Origin: a virus
Taxonomy: Duplodnaviria; Caudoviricetes
Reading direction: 5' to 3' (one strand)
IMG/VR virus record: IMGVR_UViG_3300017780_003104
Location: 128,001-192,000 of that record
Length of the DNA stretch: 64,000 nucleotides
A program made the position numbers and the translations under genes. Each line of letters opens with the position of its first letter. Position 1 is the first letter of the stretch. Below, piece by piece: positions 3,182 through 25,461 of the stretch. The notes beneath the pieces are model-generated. The model made no database searches. It had not been told where the DNA came from and worked only from the letters and a program-made list of their open reading frames with translations.

Positions 3182-3753
3182 TTGATTATTCACAAGACTT
3201 AAAAAACAAGTGTAAACGGTGGCATATATCGGAATATACCGATCCCGTATTGACAGATCCAAAATTTGAATATTGGTCTGGTTCTGGTAGTTCTATACAC
3301 CATCATTATGGTGATGGTGGGCTACTTAAACACACTCATGAAGTCTTTACTTACTGTGAAGTGATATCACAACAACATAATTCGACTTGTCATGGAGATA
3401 AAAGACTTAATCATAAGGAATTATTAATTAGTGCTATTTGGCATGATTATGGTAAGATTTGGGATTATCAAAAAGACGATAATGGTGTTTGGGGAAAGCA
3501 TAATAACCATGCTCGACAAATTCATCACATTTCAAGATCCGCGATCCAATTTCAGACTTGGTATTACTCAAGACTGACCACACCAATCCACGATATAGTT
3601 GCAGATAATATTACTCATAATATTCTAGCACATCATGGTATGAGAGAATGGGGGAGTCCTGTTGCTCCTGCTACGAGAGAAGCATGGGTGTTGCATCTTG
3701 CTGATAACCTATCTGCAAGACTTGACGATTTAGATAAACACGATAGATTTTAA
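3178..3753 (+). CDS. HD-domain phosphohydrolase (YhaM-like)
   Basis: HHYGDGGLLKHT, WHDYGKI, HNILAHHG..EWGSP, LHLADNLSA. Confidence 0.8.
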   Translation: MIDYSQDLKNKCKRWHISEYTDPVLTDPKFEYWSGSGSSIHHHYGDGGLLKHTHEVFTYCEVISQQHNSTCHGDKRLNHKELLISAIWHDYGKIWDYQKDDNGVWGKHNNHARQIHHISRSAIQFQTWYYSRLTTPIHDIVADNITHNILAHHGMREWGSPVAPATREAWVLHLADNLSARLDDLDKHDRF

Positions 3754-3781
3754 TTAATTAAAACCGAAATACAATAACGGC

Positions 3782-4243
3782 ATGAACAAAATGAAACTAG
3801 TATTGGGTGATTGGTCAAAAGATGGACATAATCAACATGAAACGATTATGGTTGAAACCAATAAAACGGTAGAAGAAATTCAACAAGGGTATAAAGACTC
3901 TTGTAAATTAACTACGGTGTCGTTTAATCATAATGAGGATTACACAGGAGTTGGGAGACACTATAGTATTTCCGATGATTACGAAATAGCTACTAATTAT
4001 GAGGAACGTCAAATTCCAGATAAAGCGAAAGAAATTTTGGAAAAATATAATGGATTTGATGAGATTTATGAGTTCTATAGTGAAGAAGCCAGTGAAGATA
4101 ATTTTACAAAACTTTGGTTCTGGTTTGTGAGTCTTTCAATTCCAGATTTGGTTTGGAATAAAATTGAAGATGATGCTCCAGTCATTAATGGGTTTTGGAA
4201 TAAGAACTTAAATGTTCAATTTGGATATGGTTTGTATTGGTAA
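3782..4243 (+). CDS. hypothetical protein
   Basis: ORF track; promoter 6 nt upstream. Confidence 0.7.
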   Translation: MNKMKLVLGDWSKDGHNQHETIMVETNKTVEEIQQGYKDSCKLTTVSFNHNEDYTGVGRHYSISDDYEIATNYEERQIPDKAKEILEKYNGFDEIYEFYSEEASEDNFTKLWFWFVSLSIPDLVWNKIEDDAPVINGFWNKNLNVQFGYGLYW

Positions 4244-4267
4244 TTAAAACCGAACTATAATAGCGGC

Positions 4268-5500
4268 ATGGCAACTGAAAAAGTAAGACTAGTATTTTCT
4301 GACTTGGGATGTAATAGTTACAAGTATTGGGATGGTGAGCTACACGATGATGGTCGAGTAATATCAACTTTTGGCGTTGTTGGTGCAAAGAACCCACAAT
4401 CAAAGGATTTTGGTATTGTTGGTAGATCGTTCTTTGATAAGAAGATTCGTGAGAAGGAACGTAAGGGATATGAACGCGCTAAAGTACTAATGGAAGGTGC
4501 CACTACAGTAGTCAACAAATCATCCCTTGCTGATATCGCATTAAGTCAAATTAAACTGTCTGATACCAGTCTTAAAACTCTTGTTAAACGACTGGCTGAT
4601 AGCAATGTCCATAAGATCACTAATTCGACCAGTATTAGTTTTGATAATGGAATGTTCCAAACCCCATTGGGTATTGTTACCAAAGAGGGGATATCCGATG
4701 CTAGACTGTTACTGGATTTCTTCTTCAAAAATATTAAGAAGAATGGTCAAGATGATTTCAATGAAAAGATTGATTCATATCTTCGAATTATCCCAAGACC
4801 TAAAGGTAATGGATTACACTATGAAGACATTTTTCCGACATTGGAATCCGTCCAAAAAGAATCAGATGTTTTGGATGCTCTTGATAATAGTGTTGAACTT
4901 GCCATGAAACCAAAGGACGATGGAACGTCGAAGGTGGAAAGTGTGTTTAACCTTAATATGGCTATCGTGGAAGATGATAAGATTATCAAAGCGATTAAAG
5001 ATTGGTATACTAGGACCAATAAGGCAATGCATAATTACACATCGATCAAAATTGCTAATATTTACGGTGTCGATATCGTAGATTACAATAAGAATTTTAA
5101 ACAAGATGATAAAAACATCATTGAAGTTTGGCATGGTAGTGGTCAATCAAATATTCTTAGTATCTTGAAGTCTGGATTGTTCTGTAGCCCACCTAGTACT
5201 GCCGCTATTGCTGGTAAGATGTTTGGTAATGGTGTATACGGTTCCAAAACATCATCTAAAAGTTTAGGATATAGTCTTGGTAGATGGGGTCAGGGAAAAG
5301 GTGAAAGTGGTTGGCTTTTTGTTTGCGACTTCGCTATGGGAAATCCGTATTACCCGAATACCAGAGGTGGCTTAAACAAGATTCCTGATGGATATCATAG
5401 TTGTTGGGCATTACCTGAAAAAACAGGCTTGCTAAATGATGAACTCATCGTATACTCCGAAAAGCAGATCAAAATTAAATTTCTCGTAGAACTAAAATAA
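4268..5500 (+). CDS. WGR + PARP-regulatory + PARP catalytic ADP-ribosyltransferase
   Basis: WGR-like N-terminus (FGVVG..KERKGY); PLG/Y..IP regulatory segment; catalytic WHGS, GKMFGNGVY, SKSLGYS, NDELIVY (H-Y-E triad). Confidence 0.85.
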   Translation: MATEKVRLVFSDLGCNSYKYWDGELHDDGRVISTFGVVGAKNPQSKDFGIVGRSFFDKKIREKERKGYERAKVLMEGATTVVNKSSLADIALSQIKLSDTSLKTLVKRLADSNVHKITNSTSISFDNGMFQTPLGIVTKEGISDARLLLDFFFKNIKKNGQDDFNEKIDSYLRIIPRPKGNGLHYEDIFPTLESVQKESDVLDALDNSVELAMKPKDDGTSKVESVFNLNMAIVEDDKIIKAIKDWYTRTNKAMHNYTSIKIANIYGVDIVDYNKNFKQDDKNIIEVWHGSGQSNILSILKSGLFCSPPSTAAIAGKMFGNGVYGSKTSSKSLGYSLGRWGQGKGESGWLFVCDFAMGNPYYPNTRGGLNKIPDGYHSCWALPEKTGLLNDELIVYSEKQIKIKFLVELK

Positions 5501-5504
5501 AATT

Positions 5505-6044
5505 ATGAAACAAATAAACGCAATTACAGCAATCCTATTAGCACTTAAGAATATTAGAAACGTGCAATTTTCGATATATAATATCACCCTCGAAATTCGT
5601 GATCAGATGTATCTCGGAACCTACCAAATAGATTACACCAATTTCATTTCCCATGCGGAAGTCAAGAAGAATTTTGAGGAATTGGAATTGATGGGTCTTT
5701 TAGATGATTACACAGTAAGTCATAATGTTGATGGTTATAGACTGTATCAATTGAAACAAGAAATGGTAAACATTCCAGATGCTTCTGTGCCAACTCCAAT
5801 ACAATCCGCATTGGTTAGAGTTCAAGCAATTAGTCGTGCTAGTGTTATCCCAATGGATATTCAGAAGAAAATTTATACATACCTTAAAGGTAATGGATCG
5901 GTTTCCATGAAGCAGATTCAATCTCGCCTCAAGAATCAACCTTATACATGTAAGGATATTAAAAACTTTTTGGCCCAATTACAATTGATTGATCCTAATA
6001 CTACATCACTACCTGATAGCCAAGCTAAAACAATTAAAATCTAA
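5505..6044 (+). CDS. hypothetical protein
   Basis: ORF track. Confidence 0.6.
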   Translation: MKQINAITAILLALKNIRNVQFSIYNITLEIRDQMYLGTYQIDYTNFISHAEVKKNFEELELMGLLDDYTVSHNVDGYRLYQLKQEMVNIPDASVPTPIQSALVRVQAISRASVIPMDIQKKIYTYLKGNGSVSMKQIQSRLKNQPYTCKDIKNFLAQLQLIDPNTTSLPDSQAKTIKI

Positions 6045-6048
6045 TATT

Positions 6049-6210
6049 ATGAGAAACCTTAAAAAAAGATGGAGTGATCTCATATGGTATGAAAAGTTAG
6101 CAGCGACTCCCGGTGTTATTATCGTTGGATGTTCAGTAGTTGCAATATCACCAGTCTTGCTTTTTATGTATTGTATAATTATTACATTTGAATTACTGGA
6201 TTTTAGATGA
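6049..6210 (+). CDS. small membrane protein
   Basis: In-frame ATG at 6049 of the track ORF; hydrophobic stretch. Confidence 0.5.
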   Translation: MRNLKKRWSDLIWYEKLAATPGVIIVGCSVVAISPVLLFMYCIIITFELLDFR

Positions 6211-6230
6211 TTGTATGAGAGGATAATAAT

Positions 6231-6677
6231 ATGATTACGAAAATTAATGATGAATTGAAACAGGCAATGCGCGACAAGAACACGACTAAGTTGAATGTTC
6301 TTCGCGCATTGAAAACAGCTATTATGAATGCTTCTCTACAGAAGGGTAACGTAAATGAACCGTTATCGGAAGTTGAGGTTATTGGTATTATTAGGAAACA
6401 ACTATCACAACGACAAGATTCTATAGCTCAATTTGTTACTGCACAACGTAATGATTTAATTGCTACAGAAGAAGCAGAAGTAGAAGTCCTCAAAGAGTTT
6501 ATACCAGAGGATTTGTCGGATTTACAGTTAGAAACATACATCATCAATACAATTTCTGAGTTAGGTGCTACTAGTAAAAAGGATATGGGGAACGTTATCA
6601 AACGGGTTGCTCATATTGTTAATGGTCGTGCTGATAATAAGAAAATATCTAAAATGGTGGGTGAGAAATTACAATGA
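6231..6677 (+). CDS. GatB/YqeY domain protein
   Basis: KQAMRDK..LNVLRALK, RQDSIAQF..R.DL..E..E..VL.EFIP, KDMGNV. Confidence 0.9.
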   Translation: MITKINDELKQAMRDKNTTKLNVLRALKTAIMNASLQKGNVNEPLSEVEVIGIIRKQLSQRQDSIAQFVTAQRNDLIATEEAEVEVLKEFIPEDLSDLQLETYIINTISELGATSKKDMGNVIKRVAHIVNGRADNKKISKMVGEKLQ

Positions 6678-20432: not shown

Positions 20433-21230
20433 ATGAATAACAAAGACGGACTAGGAGACAGAATAAAAAATTACGAAAGTATTTCAGAGCATTACTTTCT
20501 ACCAAAGACTCCGATTATTATTCGCGTTGATGGTAAAAGTTTTCATACGTGGACTAAAGGTTGTCAAAGACCTTTCGATCAAACGCTGATCACTTGTATG
20601 TTTGAGTCTGCTAAAGAAGTAGCTAAACAAATGCAAGGTTGTAAAGCTTTGTATGCTCAATCGGATGAAGTAACATTTGTTCTTACTGATGATACTACTC
20701 TTGATTCACAACAATGGTTTGGCGGTAGACAGAACAAGATTGAAAGTGTTACTGCTGCAATGATGACAGCATACTTTAATAAGAATTGGTTACATTCTGT
20801 TCCTAGACATATGGTTGATTATGATTTTCACGTAGATTACACCCCCGCTATCTTTGATGCCCGTGCTTTTCAATGTCCTAAAGATGATGTTGCTAATGTC
20901 TTTCTATGGAGAGTAAAGGATTGGGAACGTAATAGTCTCAATATGTATTGTGAACAGTTCTTCTCTCATAAGGAACTGCAAGGTCAAGGTCGTGCTGATA
21001 GACATGAAATGCTTCATAAGATTGGACATAATTGGGCTACTGAATGCACCGATCAACAAAAGAATGGTTCGTGGTATTCTCCGGGAAAACCTGATAAGTT
21101 CAACCTCACTAATTACTATGATATCGATGATTATATCTTTCGTGACGGTATTGCTTATGTAATGTCAAAGAAGATGCAATCAGAGGATTTAAGTTGGATG
21201 AGTAAAATGATTGTAAAGAGAATGGGTTAA
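20433..21230 (+). CDS. tRNA(His) guanylyltransferase Thg1-like
   Basis: IRVDGKSFH, YAQSDEVT, WFGGR..KIES, FDARAF, WRVKDWERNS. Confidence 0.9.
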   Translation: MNNKDGLGDRIKNYESISEHYFLPKTPIIIRVDGKSFHTWTKGCQRPFDQTLITCMFESAKEVAKQMQGCKALYAQSDEVTFVLTDDTTLDSQQWFGGRQNKIESVTAAMMTAYFNKNWLHSVPRHMVDYDFHVDYTPAIFDARAFQCPKDDVANVFLWRVKDWERNSLNMYCEQFFSHKELQGQGRADRHEMLHKIGHNWATECTDQQKNGSWYSPGKPDKFNLTNYYDIDDYIFRDGIAYVMSKKMQSEDLSWMSKMIVKRMG

Positions 21231-22673: not shown

Positions 22674-24329
22674 ATGTTTGAGAATAAAAGAAACGCAGAA
22701 GTCGTGACTGTTAAATCAGTTACTCGTAAGGAAGTTAACGCATTCCTAAACAATGCTAAAGCAGAATCATCCAAGACTCGTTCTGGTAACGGGGCATTGA
22801 AATTCAGTTCAAGTGGTGATTCGTTTACCGATCAGTTTACTAAGGCTGGTAAGTATAAGGAACCTCGTAAGTTCTCTCAAATCGCACAAGATTGTGAAAT
22901 GTTGTGGGGTGAAGACCCTCTCAAGTGTGTGAAGTTCGCATTGTTTCTTCGTACTATTCCTCGCGTAGTTAATCTTCCTGATGGAAGTAAGACTGAACTT
23001 CCTCAAAAGGGAACCGAGTTGAAGCATGAAGCAATTATGCGTATGCTTTGGTTGAGTGATAAGTCTCCTCAAGCATTCTGGAATAACATTCTATTGTTTG
23101 TTTCTCTTGGATCTTGGCACGATGTTTTCACTATGCTTCAATATGATCTTAGCTACAACGGTTGGAATAATCGTAAGCTTGATTGGGATAAGTTTGGTGA
23201 GTTGATTCTTGCTGGTCTTAACAATAAGAACACCTGTGATCTTATTAAGAAGTATCTTCCTCAAATCAAGTCTCGTAGTCAAGCTACGACTATTGATGCT
23301 CAATCCAACAATGCTATTGCTAAGTGGATTTGCTCTCTAGTCTTTGGTAACAAGGAAAGCGCATCTTCATACAAGGCTTATCGTAAGATCAAGACTAGTG
23401 GAACCGCGCATGATTGGCAAAAGCTTATCTCCCAAAAGAGAATGAGTGAATTGGATTTCAATAAAATTCATGGTCGTGCTCTATCAATTCTTGTTAAGAG
23501 TAAGTTCTTAAAGAACCAAGGACTTAGCGATAAGTATGCATCTTGGATTACTGCACCTACCACCAAGGAAGTTAAGTATACTGGATTCGTCCATGAACTC
23601 TTCGAAGGTAACTGGAAGAACGATAAGAACAACGAAGCAACTATCAATAAGCAATTCGATACTCTTGTTCAAAAGGCAAGAACTAATGAAGTTACTGATT
23701 TGATTGTCGTTCGTGATACTTCTGGATCGATGTCTTCAATTTGTCCCGGCACTAAGTCTTCATGTCTTGATGTTGGAAAGGCAATCGCTCTATACTTTAG
23801 TGAATTCCTTCAAGGAACCTTTGCGGGTCATTGGATTGAATTCAACTCTGATGCTAAACTTCAAAAATGGGTTGGTCAAACTCCCGTTGATAAGTGGAAG
23901 AATGATAAGTCAAGCTTTTATGGTGGAACTAACTTTCAAAGTGTTGTTAATCTTCTCGCTAAGATGAAGAAAGAGGGAACACCTGAAAGTGATTTCCCTA
24001 GCGGTATCCTTTGCATTTCCGATGCAGAATTCAATCCTACTTCATTAGGTAAAACTAATGTTGAGACTGCGTTGACTACTCTTCGTAATGCTGGATTCTC
24101 CAAGGCTTATGTTGATAACTTTGTGATTATTCTTTGGAACCTTCAAAATAGTTATTATGGTAAAGGGTCTGGTGAAAAGTTTGAGACTGGTAAAGAAGTA
24201 AACAACGTTTACTATCTGGGTGGGTATAGTGCCTCCGCAGTTAGTTTCCTTTCAGCTAAGATCAAGACAACCTATGATCTAATCAACGAGTGTCTTAATC
24301 AGGAAGTTTTGAATATGGTTGAGATTTAA
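22674..24329 (+). CDS. TROVE/Ro60-like (DUF2828-type) helical domain + C-terminal vWA domain
   Basis: vWA MIDAS-like VVRDTSGSM, GGTNFQSV, CISDAEF, ILWNL; N-terminal FSSSGDSFTDQF, LGSWHDVF. Confidence 0.7.
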   Translation: MFENKRNAEVVTVKSVTRKEVNAFLNNAKAESSKTRSGNGALKFSSSGDSFTDQFTKAGKYKEPRKFSQIAQDCEMLWGEDPLKCVKFALFLRTIPRVVNLPDGSKTELPQKGTELKHEAIMRMLWLSDKSPQAFWNNILLFVSLGSWHDVFTMLQYDLSYNGWNNRKLDWDKFGELILAGLNNKNTCDLIKKYLPQIKSRSQATTIDAQSNNAIAKWICSLVFGNKESASSYKAYRKIKTSGTAHDWQKLISQKRMSELDFNKIHGRALSILVKSKFLKNQGLSDKYASWITAPTTKEVKYTGFVHELFEGNWKNDKNNEATINKQFDTLVQKARTNEVTDLIVVRDTSGSMSSICPGTKSSCLDVGKAIALYFSEFLQGTFAGHWIEFNSDAKLQKWVGQTPVDKWKNDKSSFYGGTNFQSVVNLLAKMKKEGTPESDFPSGILCISDAEFNPTSLGKTNVETALTTLRNAGFSKAYVDNFVIILWNLQNSYYGKGSGEKFETGKEVNNVYYLGGYSASAVSFLSAKIKTTYDLINECLNQEVLNMVEI

Positions 24330-24558
24330 ATATCTTAAACTTTCTATCTAAAAAGAGAGTGGAGTCTTTGTAAATAAAGTTTCCGATGCGACCAACTTTA
24401 TCTAGAATCAATAGACAAGCCGACTGATTTGGAAAAATTTACAATGACAATAATAACAGCAAAATTAGAAGAGGTTGACAAATCTAAATTTCATGATTAA
24501 ATAAAGATCCGATGAGGTTTCGGTAGCTTCCTATGGCGAACAAATAAAACTACCAATA

Positions 24559-25461
24559 AGATTGCTTCAGCAAATATATTTTTATTTAAGGAAAAACAAA
24601 AGCAATCTGATAAGAGGACAAACTACAAATACAAAAAATCAAACGTCCTCTGATAAGAATAAGTAACAGCAAAAACAATAAAAAATAAAAGCAAATATGC
24701 TAAACGATGAAAGTCGTCCGGGTATCCTCACCATATTAGAGGTTGTAATATGGAGCTTAGAAGGGAGTCAATCTTAACTTATTCTGATAAAGTCATAAAC
24801 TGCAAATAAAAATACTATTATGCAAAATAGCCTGTCGGTGGGTCCGAGGTAACTAAAACGGTTCGATTCCGTATCTATGACTTGCATAAAATCTCTTCAG
24901 CAAATAACGGAACGTAAAACTCCCATACGTGTGGTTCAAATCCCGCTGCTCACACTTTATTAAAAAGTGGGTATAGCCAAGTGGTAAGGCAGGAGTCCAA
25001 AAACAATGAGATTTAATAGAAATACTCCAGCAAATAACGCAACAAGGAACCGTGTGTCGAACGTTCGATTCGTTCTCTCCCACCATATAAGTAAAATGGG
25101 AGGTAGCTCAGTTGGTAGAGCAACGGTAAGCAAAAAACATAGTATTTCGATAGGATTATATTCAGCAAATATACTACTCAACTGTTAATTGAAAAAAGTA
25201 AAAGTAATCCGATAAGAATTTCAGCAGCATAATATCGTAACTATAACGACTCTAAGGTAGCTTAGGTTTGGGAAACCAATACGGCGATGGTAGATAGGTA
25301 AACTAAGTTCTTTATAGAATATGTAAACCCTACGGGACGAACGATTGAATATTTATATATTCTTTAATGTGTCAGTGAAAGATGAAATTCTGATAAAATT
25401 AGCAACAGCAAACCAAACAAAAATTTGACTTTTAATCAAACAATAAAATGCTAATTTGATA
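24559..25461 (+). ncRNA. array of nine tandem stem-CAGCAAA-cargo-stem-GATA RNA modules (Y RNA-like)
   Basis: Nine different but self-complementary 7-9 bp closing stems; shared CAGCAAA-like bulge; 4-5 nt GATA-like linkers. Confidence 0.85.

Follow-up and report, generated by a model that had tools for sequence, protein, structure and literature searches.

Ro60 orthologues of bacteria and phages are encoded beside Y RNAs, whose ends form the protein-binding stem and which carry a module that imitates tRNA (PMC4201824), and the Ro60 of phage phiLo binds two adjoining Y-like RNAs together with the host PNPase (PMC12135203). Tandem phage RNAs are also known as decoys; in pseudo-ToxI of phage PhiTE, antitoxin repeats neutralise a toxin (PMC3475682). 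Here we analyse a tandem array of RNA units in a stretch of 64,000 nucleotides (nt) from a Caudoviricetes phage (IMG/VR record IMGVR_UViG_3300017780_003104, positions 128,001 to 192,000; hereafter, the window), and above all its unit 8, which lies downstream of a gene for a Ro60-like protein and contains a segment resembling helix 69 (H69) of 23S ribosomal RNA (rRNA). Positions are those of the window, and the features are collected in Table 1.

Unit 8 resembles the YrlA-type Y RNAs (RF02553; PMC4201824, PMC12135203) in being a small RNA within about 1 kb of a Ro60-fold gene, on one strand and with several such RNAs at the locus. In the units of the array, as in these RNAs, the two ends make up a stem that bears a conserved internal-loop motif, and a module that appears to imitate a host translation RNA is attached to the stem at the loop of that RNA. 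Unlike in YrlA, the module of unit 8 would imitate 23S H69 and its flanks, not tRNA, and the array has a CAGCAAA handle, nine strictly tandem units and a protein too divergent for the Pfam TROVE family. As is characteristic of Y RNAs, unit 8 and its relatives lie within about 4 kb of a Ro60 orthologue on the same strand, and the two ends of unit 8 pair in its closing stem, beside a large internal loop. The GNCGAA motif does not occur in unit 8, and the RF02553 covariance model gave no match on it even at E <= 10.

Like pseudo-ToxI, unit 8 would be part of a tandem phage RNA that resembles a host RNA and thereby occupies a host protein; unlike pseudo-ToxI, it resembles ribosomal RNA and its partner protein is Ro60-like. 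The leaders of ribosomal-protein operons (the L1, L10, L20 and S8 autoregulatory sites) reproduce rRNA protein-binding sites, so that the same protein binds both. Such leaders act in cis within the cell's own mRNA, whereas unit 8 would be a phage RNA in its own right, carried on a Ro60 handle, with a putative partner protein. Full-text literature searches yielded no description of a Y RNA imitating ribosomal RNA.

Unit 8 contains a segment matching 23S rRNA around helix 69

A first-pass annotation of the window, made from the letters alone, had noted identity between unit 8 and the H69 loop, together with the sequence downstream of it, and the alignment bears this out. Window positions 25236-25261 (CGTAACTATAACGACTCTAAGGTAGC) align without gaps to positions 1909-1934 of the E. 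coli 23S rRNA (rrlH), with 23 of 26 positions identical, and both the 7-nt H69 loop, AACUAUA, and the following CUAAGGUAGC are the same in the two RNAs. Relative to 23S, the stem shows a change from C-G to U-A that would preserve the pairing, just as described in that annotation, and one relative (L183) has the U.G intermediate. The pseudouridines of H69 (23S 1906-1924), at 1911, 1915 and 1917, correspond to uridines at 25238, 25242 and 25244 of the window. In the Rfam consensus for the large ribosomal subunit, the matched segment is nearly invariant in bacteria, and the ribosomal pairing runs from the 3′ strand of H68 (ACGGC) through H69 itself (GGCCGU-AACUAUA-ACGGUC) to a small C-UAA-G turn.

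To set this match against chance, we shuffled the complete 961-nt array 300 times at the dinucleotide level and scored both strands. The array itself had a local score of 37 against 23S, whereas the shuffles averaged 24.1 (standard deviation 2.0) and never exceeded 33, placing the observed score 6.5 standard deviations above the mean (Gumbel p = 2.5e-4). There is a single true copy of the 18-nt core of this match in the 211.7-kb genome to which the window belongs. No Rfam family matched unit 8, or the corresponding unit of the distant relative L203, at E <= 10, and blastn of the unit against E. coli genomes gave no match, in a database too large for a 26-nt match.

The 18-nt core recurs after the handle motif in nine lineages

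The first-pass annotation had made the match depend on its presence in homologous arrays, and there an 18-nt core, AUAAYGGYCCUAAGGUAG (23S 1916-1933), stands right after the handle motif in nine lineages, comprising the window with L189, and L118, L183, L002, L141, L146, L148, L199 and L203. The array-carrying assemblies come from freshwater metagenomes and, where the neighbouring gene could be seen, the Ro-like proteins of these lineages are 36-95% identical to that of the window. Full homologues of unit 8 occur in L189-191 (Ro-like protein 95% identical), L118, L183 and L002/L129 (85%), and L183 reads CGUAACUAUAACGGUUCUAAGGUAGC, which is identical to 23S 1909-1934 at 25 of 26 positions. In L141, L146 and L148 (52-56%), the unit starts after the handle with AAUAAUGGYCCUAAGGU(A/U)G. 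An exact-pattern scan of IMG/VR added L199 (36%) and L203; the latter matches 23S at 20 of 21 positions of 1916-1936 and at 13 of 14 of 1901-1914, and no Ro-like gene was found within the 11 kb examined around it. Outside the core, the cargo of the nine lineages has diverged beyond alignment.

The placement of the core is equally restricted. In a search of 618 kb of Ro-type loci that allowed up to 3 mismatches, every occurrence of the 18-mer ATAACGGTCCTAAGGTAG lay in an array unit, on the coding strand and immediately behind the handle. As a control, about 600 kb of Ro-like loci were compared with the whole E. coli rrn operon, and six of the seven best matches fell on 23S 1909-1936; the seventh (L169, against 23S 2310-2333) lies inside a coding gene and is thus due to chance. 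A profile hidden Markov model of the nine lineages (nhmmer) matched 23S 1911-1940 with E = 2.3e-6, and had no other match in 16S, 23S or 5S rRNA or in their reversed sequences. Different lineages keep different additional pieces of 23S, namely 1909-1915, 1934-1936 and 1900-1905. Together, these comparisons support the conclusion that the 23S-like element in unit 8 is real and selectively maintained.

Other searches were less productive. A 14-mer scan of viral contigs gave 120 mostly chance matches, of which filtering left L118 alone. The pattern scan of metagenomes recovered two true homologues, L182 (the same as L118) and L183, and five further matches that were GC-rich chance or coding sequence. 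For the 19-mer of the B-type design described below, a genome collection gave 10 matches, about the number expected by chance, all of them in ordinary coding sequence without handles. Separately, the H69-type unit of L141 and L146 contains, some 35 nt short of its 3′ end, the sequence AGGCCC(C/U)AAGGGGUACUGG, which resembles 23S 2534-2551 (the H91 hairpin leading into H92), with a score of 21 that is not significant alone.

Distant lineages appear to rebuild the H69 stem around the handle

The part that is constant among lineages, 23S 1916-1933, begins within the H69 loop, of which it includes the 3′ portion, and continues through the 3′ strand of the stem and the junction CCUAAGGUAG. In five distant lineages (L141, L146, L148, L199 and L203; B-type), the last 20-odd bases of the cargo, before the 3′ side of the handle, read NGGM followed by GRCYRU, like 23S 1901-1911. 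When aligned to 23S 1890-1915, these 3′ ends land on 1900-1914, with 11/12 identities in L148 (p = 0.0008), 13/14 in L203 (p = 0.0008), 9/10 in L199 (p = 0.01), 9/10 in L141 (p = 0.045) and 6/6 in L146 (p = 0.2). Against the whole 23S, the best matches of these tails are scattered, except for L203; only the test targeted at 1890-1915 was informative.

The 3′ hexamer of the B-type units pairs with the 5′ AUGGYC at five or six of six positions, with changes from C-G to U-A, from U.G to U-A and from G-C to G.U. Additionally, the four or five bases before the hexamer pair with a nearby upstream partner, forming a short helix on the stem, as H68 does on H69. The distant relatives thus share with 23S H68/H69 the copied ACGGC and GGCCGU, and an H68-like helix stacked on the stem. 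The B-type RNAs, as judged from five sequences, would therefore have rebuilt the H69 stem and both its flanks, with the Ro handle in the place of the loop. This position of the handle parallels that in the tRNA-like units of the array and in YrlA, which are joined to the handle on the anticodon side. Long-range partners are also present in L183 and L002 (CGGUU/AGCCG and CGGCA/UGCCG, with a swap from U-A to A-U), whereas the window and L118 have the local hairpin with an intact loop only.

The first-pass annotation had placed its emphasis on the loop and on intersubunit bridge B2a, and here our results point elsewhere. The local H69-like hairpin is kept in the window, L189, L118 and L183, with a stem of 3-5 bp, and shows no double compensatory change within the family. 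In L002, a 2-nt insertion alters the loop and the local stem is lost, and in the five B-type lineages, which are the majority, the handle interrupts the loop. The kept part thus appears to be the H69 stem and its flanks (the core, 1916-1933, plus a 5′ flank, 1900-1911), and not the loop.

Unit 8 is a structured RNA

In an alignment of five A-type sequences, the type of unit 8, 92% of the cells of the consensus fold were paired and 17 pairs showed double changes, a result that none of 500 shuffles equalled; slid controls of the same alignment had 31-38% of cells paired. This covariation indicates that unit 8 is a structured RNA. The borders of the unit had been placed correctly from the start, and coincide with the two strands of the closing stem.

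Two of three further hairpins proposed in the first-pass annotation hold up in this fold. The one capped by GAAA is backed by compensatory changes and by a natural strain variant (DNA run X3) in which T25268A and A25279T together replace U-A by A-U and keep the pair, and the GAAUAU/AUAUUC hairpin is likewise backed by compensatory changes. The third, CCC-TACG-GG, is not part of the consensus, in which CCCUAC pairs instead with GUAG..GG. A hairpin also follows the core in other lineages, and is GAAA-capped in L141 and L148. The predicted pairing of CUAAG with CUUAG is invariant, so that covariation neither supports nor refutes it.

A second likeness to rRNA lies in the cargo. The segment CGGCGAUGGUAG (25281-25292) matches E. 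coli 5S rRNA 68-79, a strand of loop E, at 11 of 12 positions, which is marginal (p about 0.02 against 5S alone, uncorrected). It is contained in ACGGCGATGGTAGATAG; the five A-type relatives all share it without change, and B-type units lack it. Misfolded pre-5S rRNA is a known ligand of Ro60.

The array lies beside a gene for a divergent Ro60-like protein

The phage genome is complete, at 211.7 kb with terminal repeats, and the Ro60-like protein encoded upstream of the array, which the first-pass annotation had not linked to the unit, provides the main clue to the mode of action of unit 8. Sequence searches reveal little of this relationship: the 551-residue protein matched only DUF7788 in Pfam (E 5e-10), which has at least 1711 homologues, not TROVE, and neither phmmer nor hmmsearch found a match among PDB sequences or solved Ro60 chains. 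Its AlphaFold model (predicted local distance difference test score, 78.8; predicted template-modelling score, 0.79) nevertheless retrieved Ro60/TROVE structures as all 13 of the top Foldseek matches in the PDB, over the full length (490-611 aligned columns; E 1.2e-6 to 3e-4), the Ro60 of Thermus phage phiLo among them. The model thus indicates that the protein probably has a very divergent Ro60 fold, with a ring of HEAT repeats and a vWA domain.

Table 1. Features of the window discussed in the text
Feature	Position	Strand	Remarks
Thg1-like (tRNA-His guanylyltransferase family) gene	20433-21230		1.4 kb upstream of the Ro-like gene
Ro60/TROVE-like ring protein gene, 551 aa, with C-terminal vWA-like domain	22674-24329	+	AlphaFold, Foldseek, Pfam
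Tandem array of stem-clamped RNA units, poor in open reading frames	24556-25460	+	Sequence, repeats
Unit 8	25215-25391	+	Downstream of the Ro60-fold gene by about 0.9 kb
Closing stem, 5′ strand, AGAAUUUCA	25215-25223	+	Pairs with 25383-25391; compensatory changes among five relatives
Handle motif, CAGCAGCA	25222-25229	+	Overlaps the 5′ strand of the closing stem
Local H69-like hairpin, UCGU-AACUAUA-ACGA	25235-25249	+	Loop identical to 23S 1912-1918
18-nt core, AUAACGACUCUAAGGUAG, corresponding to 23S 1916-1933	25243-25260	+	15/18 here, up to 17/18 in relatives
Predicted hairpin, UCUAAG-GUAG-CUUAGG	25251-25266	+	RNAalifold consensus; all pairs invariant
Hairpin UUGG-GAAA-CCAA, invariant GAAA tetraloop	25268-25279	+	Compensatory changes in 2 of 4 pairs
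Long stem GUAG..CUAC, enclosing hairpin GUUCU-UUAU-AGAAU	25290-25333	+	Compensatory changes in five pairs
Stem GACG..UGUC, enclosing a variable hairpin (GAAUAU/AUAUUC in the window)	25336-25373	+	Compensatory changes in eight pairs
Closing stem, 3′ strand, UGAAAUUCU	25383-25391	+	Followed by a GAUAAA linker

The array itself contains no credible open reading frame (ORF) between 24556 and 25460. Its units follow one plan, in which a closing stem is followed, after its 5′ strand, by a CAGCAAA-type motif, then by a variable cargo and by an A-rich stretch before the 3′ strand, with (C)UGAUAA as linker. Handles were listed across about 60 loci, and the motif CAGCA(A/G)(A/C)A occurs in every unit; in more distant arrays, just the handle is detected by model R1. 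The adjoining unit at 25051-25125 gives a sub-threshold match of 33 bits to the Rfam YrlA family (gathering score, 69), comprising T arm, D arm and closed acceptor stem, and the neighbouring units are tRNA bodies attached to the handle on the anticodon side. With a Ro60 fold next door and a YrlA-like neighbouring unit, the array is best read as about nine Y-RNA-like partner RNAs of the Ro60-like ring protein. A scan of the array for promoters and terminators gave no signal above background.

In metatranscriptome X20, from a freshwater sediment sample shared with DNA run X2, contigs fell on 24184-24406 (the end of the Ro-like gene) and on 24807-25069 (units 4-6). They are compatible with transcription and are no proof of it, since the RNA library may contain DNA; none of them covers unit 8, for which the run is uninformative either way. 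In the related strain of DNA run X3, one short contig seems to join 25122 directly to 25236, so that unit 7 and the unit 8 handle are left out; the join is weak, with 22 nt on one side, and would, if real, mean that units are reshuffled between strains.

Other units have features of their own. Two short units with an "empty" handle, at 24560-24609 and 25154-25211, gave sub-threshold matches to the Rfam family Dicty_Class_I_RNA, with bit scores of 30.2 and 16.4 against a gathering score of 41.5. The shared design, a terminal stem followed by a ...CAGCAA motif, has probably arisen by convergence. Two further types of cargo are kept among relatives. The first (24664-24790 in the window; L129, 5645-5760; L193, 5020-5140) has about 110 nt and contains GGGUAUCCUCACCAUAU..GAGGUUGU, and the second (24795-24885; L129, 5546-5630; L193, 4925-5010) has a T-arm-like GGUUCGAUUCC after CCUGUCGGUGG.

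Among the genes of the neighbourhood, the Thg1-like gene is found in relatives in conserved synteny with genes for a NAPRTase and a nucleoside deoxyribosyltransferase-like protein; the region looks like one for RNA repair or NAD salvage. In the complete 211.7-kb genome, neither an RluD-type pseudouridine synthase nor RtcB is encoded. In one relative (L195/L196; Ro-like protein 79% identical), a 261-aa ORF with faint LAGLIDADG matches (3529-4314, minus strand) directly follows the Ro-like gene, with the RNA array about 2 kb further downstream, at 5560-6260.

Weighing the possible functions of the 23S-like element

We propose that unit 8 would be one of about nine Y-RNA-like partners of the Ro60-like protein, each joining a common handle, presumably the docking site of the protein, to a variable module. 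The module of unit 8 would be a structured RNA of roughly 150 nt, its 5′ part being a selectively kept copy of the H69 region (the stem, CCUAAGGUAG and, here, also the loop). This module would also be recognised by a factor, of the host or of the phage, whose normal target is the H68/H69/H70 junction of 23S; the factor would thereby be tethered to the Ro60-like protein or sequestered during infection. By analogy with the YrlA-type Y RNAs, whose module imitates tRNA, we infer an rRNA look-alike in this position, and likewise the binding of the handle by the protein, the expression and processing of the units, and the existence and identity of the factor. To functional mimicry of 23S on a Ro60 handle we assign a probability of roughly 0.55.

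Several observations weigh against this proposal. Past GGUAG, no likeness to H70/H71 was found; the similarity of the following 65 nt to 23S 1934-2000 is not significant in any lineage (p 0.05-0.94), and the copy is thus local, of about 26-37 nt, rather than a domain IV in miniature. In the predicted fold CUAAG is paired with CUUAG, unlike in 23S, because of which the element of unit 8 may differ from the ribosomal junction in three dimensions. The type of unit 8 is missing from the equally close arrays of L192, L193 and L130; it is therefore dispensable or exchangeable, and array units come and go. Part of the likeness of the 5′ strand in B-type units is forced by its pairing with a 3′ strand that is itself conserved; independent evidence comes from the flanks, with ACGGC before the hexamer and, in L203, AAC after it. 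Finally, the handle motif CAGCAAA differs from the known Y RNA motif, GNCGAAN0-1G (PMC4201824).

A serious alternative, which we nonetheless consider unlikely, is that the element is a relic or a private structural motif, derived from a captured piece of host rDNA or by convergence, whose core is kept for the RNA's own fold. In the consensus fold, CUAAG forms one strand of a helix, with a downstream CUUAG or UUAGG in most lineages, there is no significant 23S likeness beyond the core, and the GAAA-capped hairpin after the core in six of nine lineages suggests an internal tertiary design, although the canonical 11-nt GAAA receptor (CCUAAG/UAUGG) cannot form from the strands present. A helix strand, however, does not need 15-17 of 18 identities to 23S in nine lineages, and the differing extra flanks fit continued selection towards the rRNA sequence. 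The neighbouring cargos are tRNA look-alikes, so mimicry is a theme of the array. A private motif would account for the conservation, and not for the persisting identity to rRNA or for the varied 23S flanks. Chance resemblance, or an assembly chimera with host rRNA reads, might be suspected from a match of only 26 nt in AT-rich metagenomic sequence, but is excluded by the conservation data: besides the shuffling and profile statistics given above, the element recurs in independent assemblies of different studies, always flanked by handle sequence on both sides, and carries three substitutions relative to 23S. A chimera had already been called unlikely in the first-pass annotation, rightly so.

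That annotation favoured a decoy acting through the loop, as in bridge B2a, on an rRNA-cleaving toxin or on a factor that binds the H69 loop (release and recycling factors, RluD or hibernation factors). The complete identity of the 7-nt loop to H69, invariant in the window, L189, L118 and L183, agrees with this, as does the RNA-repair flavour of a neighbourhood with a Thg1-like gene (PMC7824862). Conservation of the stem and the junction, and not of the loop, which is replaced by the handle in five lineages and altered in L002, nevertheless weakens the loop-decoy version, and neither an RluD-type synthase nor RtcB is encoded by the phage itself; we regard this version as improbable. To our knowledge, no toxin that cuts the H69 loop has been described. 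At the DNA level, the 26-mer could be the target, or a relic site, of a homing endonuclease of the I-CeuI type, given that the I-CeuI site, TAACTATAACGGTCCTAAGGTAGCGA, overlaps it and that the I-CeuI family recognises exactly this stretch of rDNA. The LAGLIDADG-like ORF after the Ro-like gene of L195/L196 would fit such an origin, but L195 has neither the motif nor half-sites near that ORF, and none of the nine units that carry the motif has an endonuclease gene next to it, or an endonuclease or intron insertion at the 1923-equivalent position. Moreover, the motif keeps one fixed position in the RNA unit, on the transcribed strand, and is split and permuted in distant lineages in a manner that is sensible for RNA pairing only, which leaves a homing site very improbable.

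Implications

Pursuing functional mimicry on a Ro60 handle one step further, Ro60-like particles might carry exchangeable modules shaped as the bodies of host RNAs (tRNA bodies, the H68/H69/H70 junction), with the handle at the place of the decoding-centre loop, and so dock the ring on ribosomal subunits or on the enzymes that service the imitated RNAs; the RNA with the intact loop would then sit in the H69 pocket of the 30S subunit, as in bridge B2a. This extension is speculative and, in our estimation, doubtful. If true, it would bring a Ro ring beside the single-stranded 3′ end of 16S rRNA, and would equip the phage with a programmable means of seizing host ribosomes or taking them apart.

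The family exists in nature in two forms, one with an intact loop and one with the handle in its place, which already separate hypotheses that depend on the loop from those that depend on the stem or junction, and the position of the motif next to the handle makes it easy to find. The mutable 18-nt core offers a concrete bait for whatever Ro60-type particles recruit, and it directs attention to the H68/H69/H70 junction, a surface whose recognition may be important in phage infection. More generally, a copy of the H69 region on a Ro60 handle suggests that the modules of Y RNAs may serve as a general display of host-RNA look-alikes.

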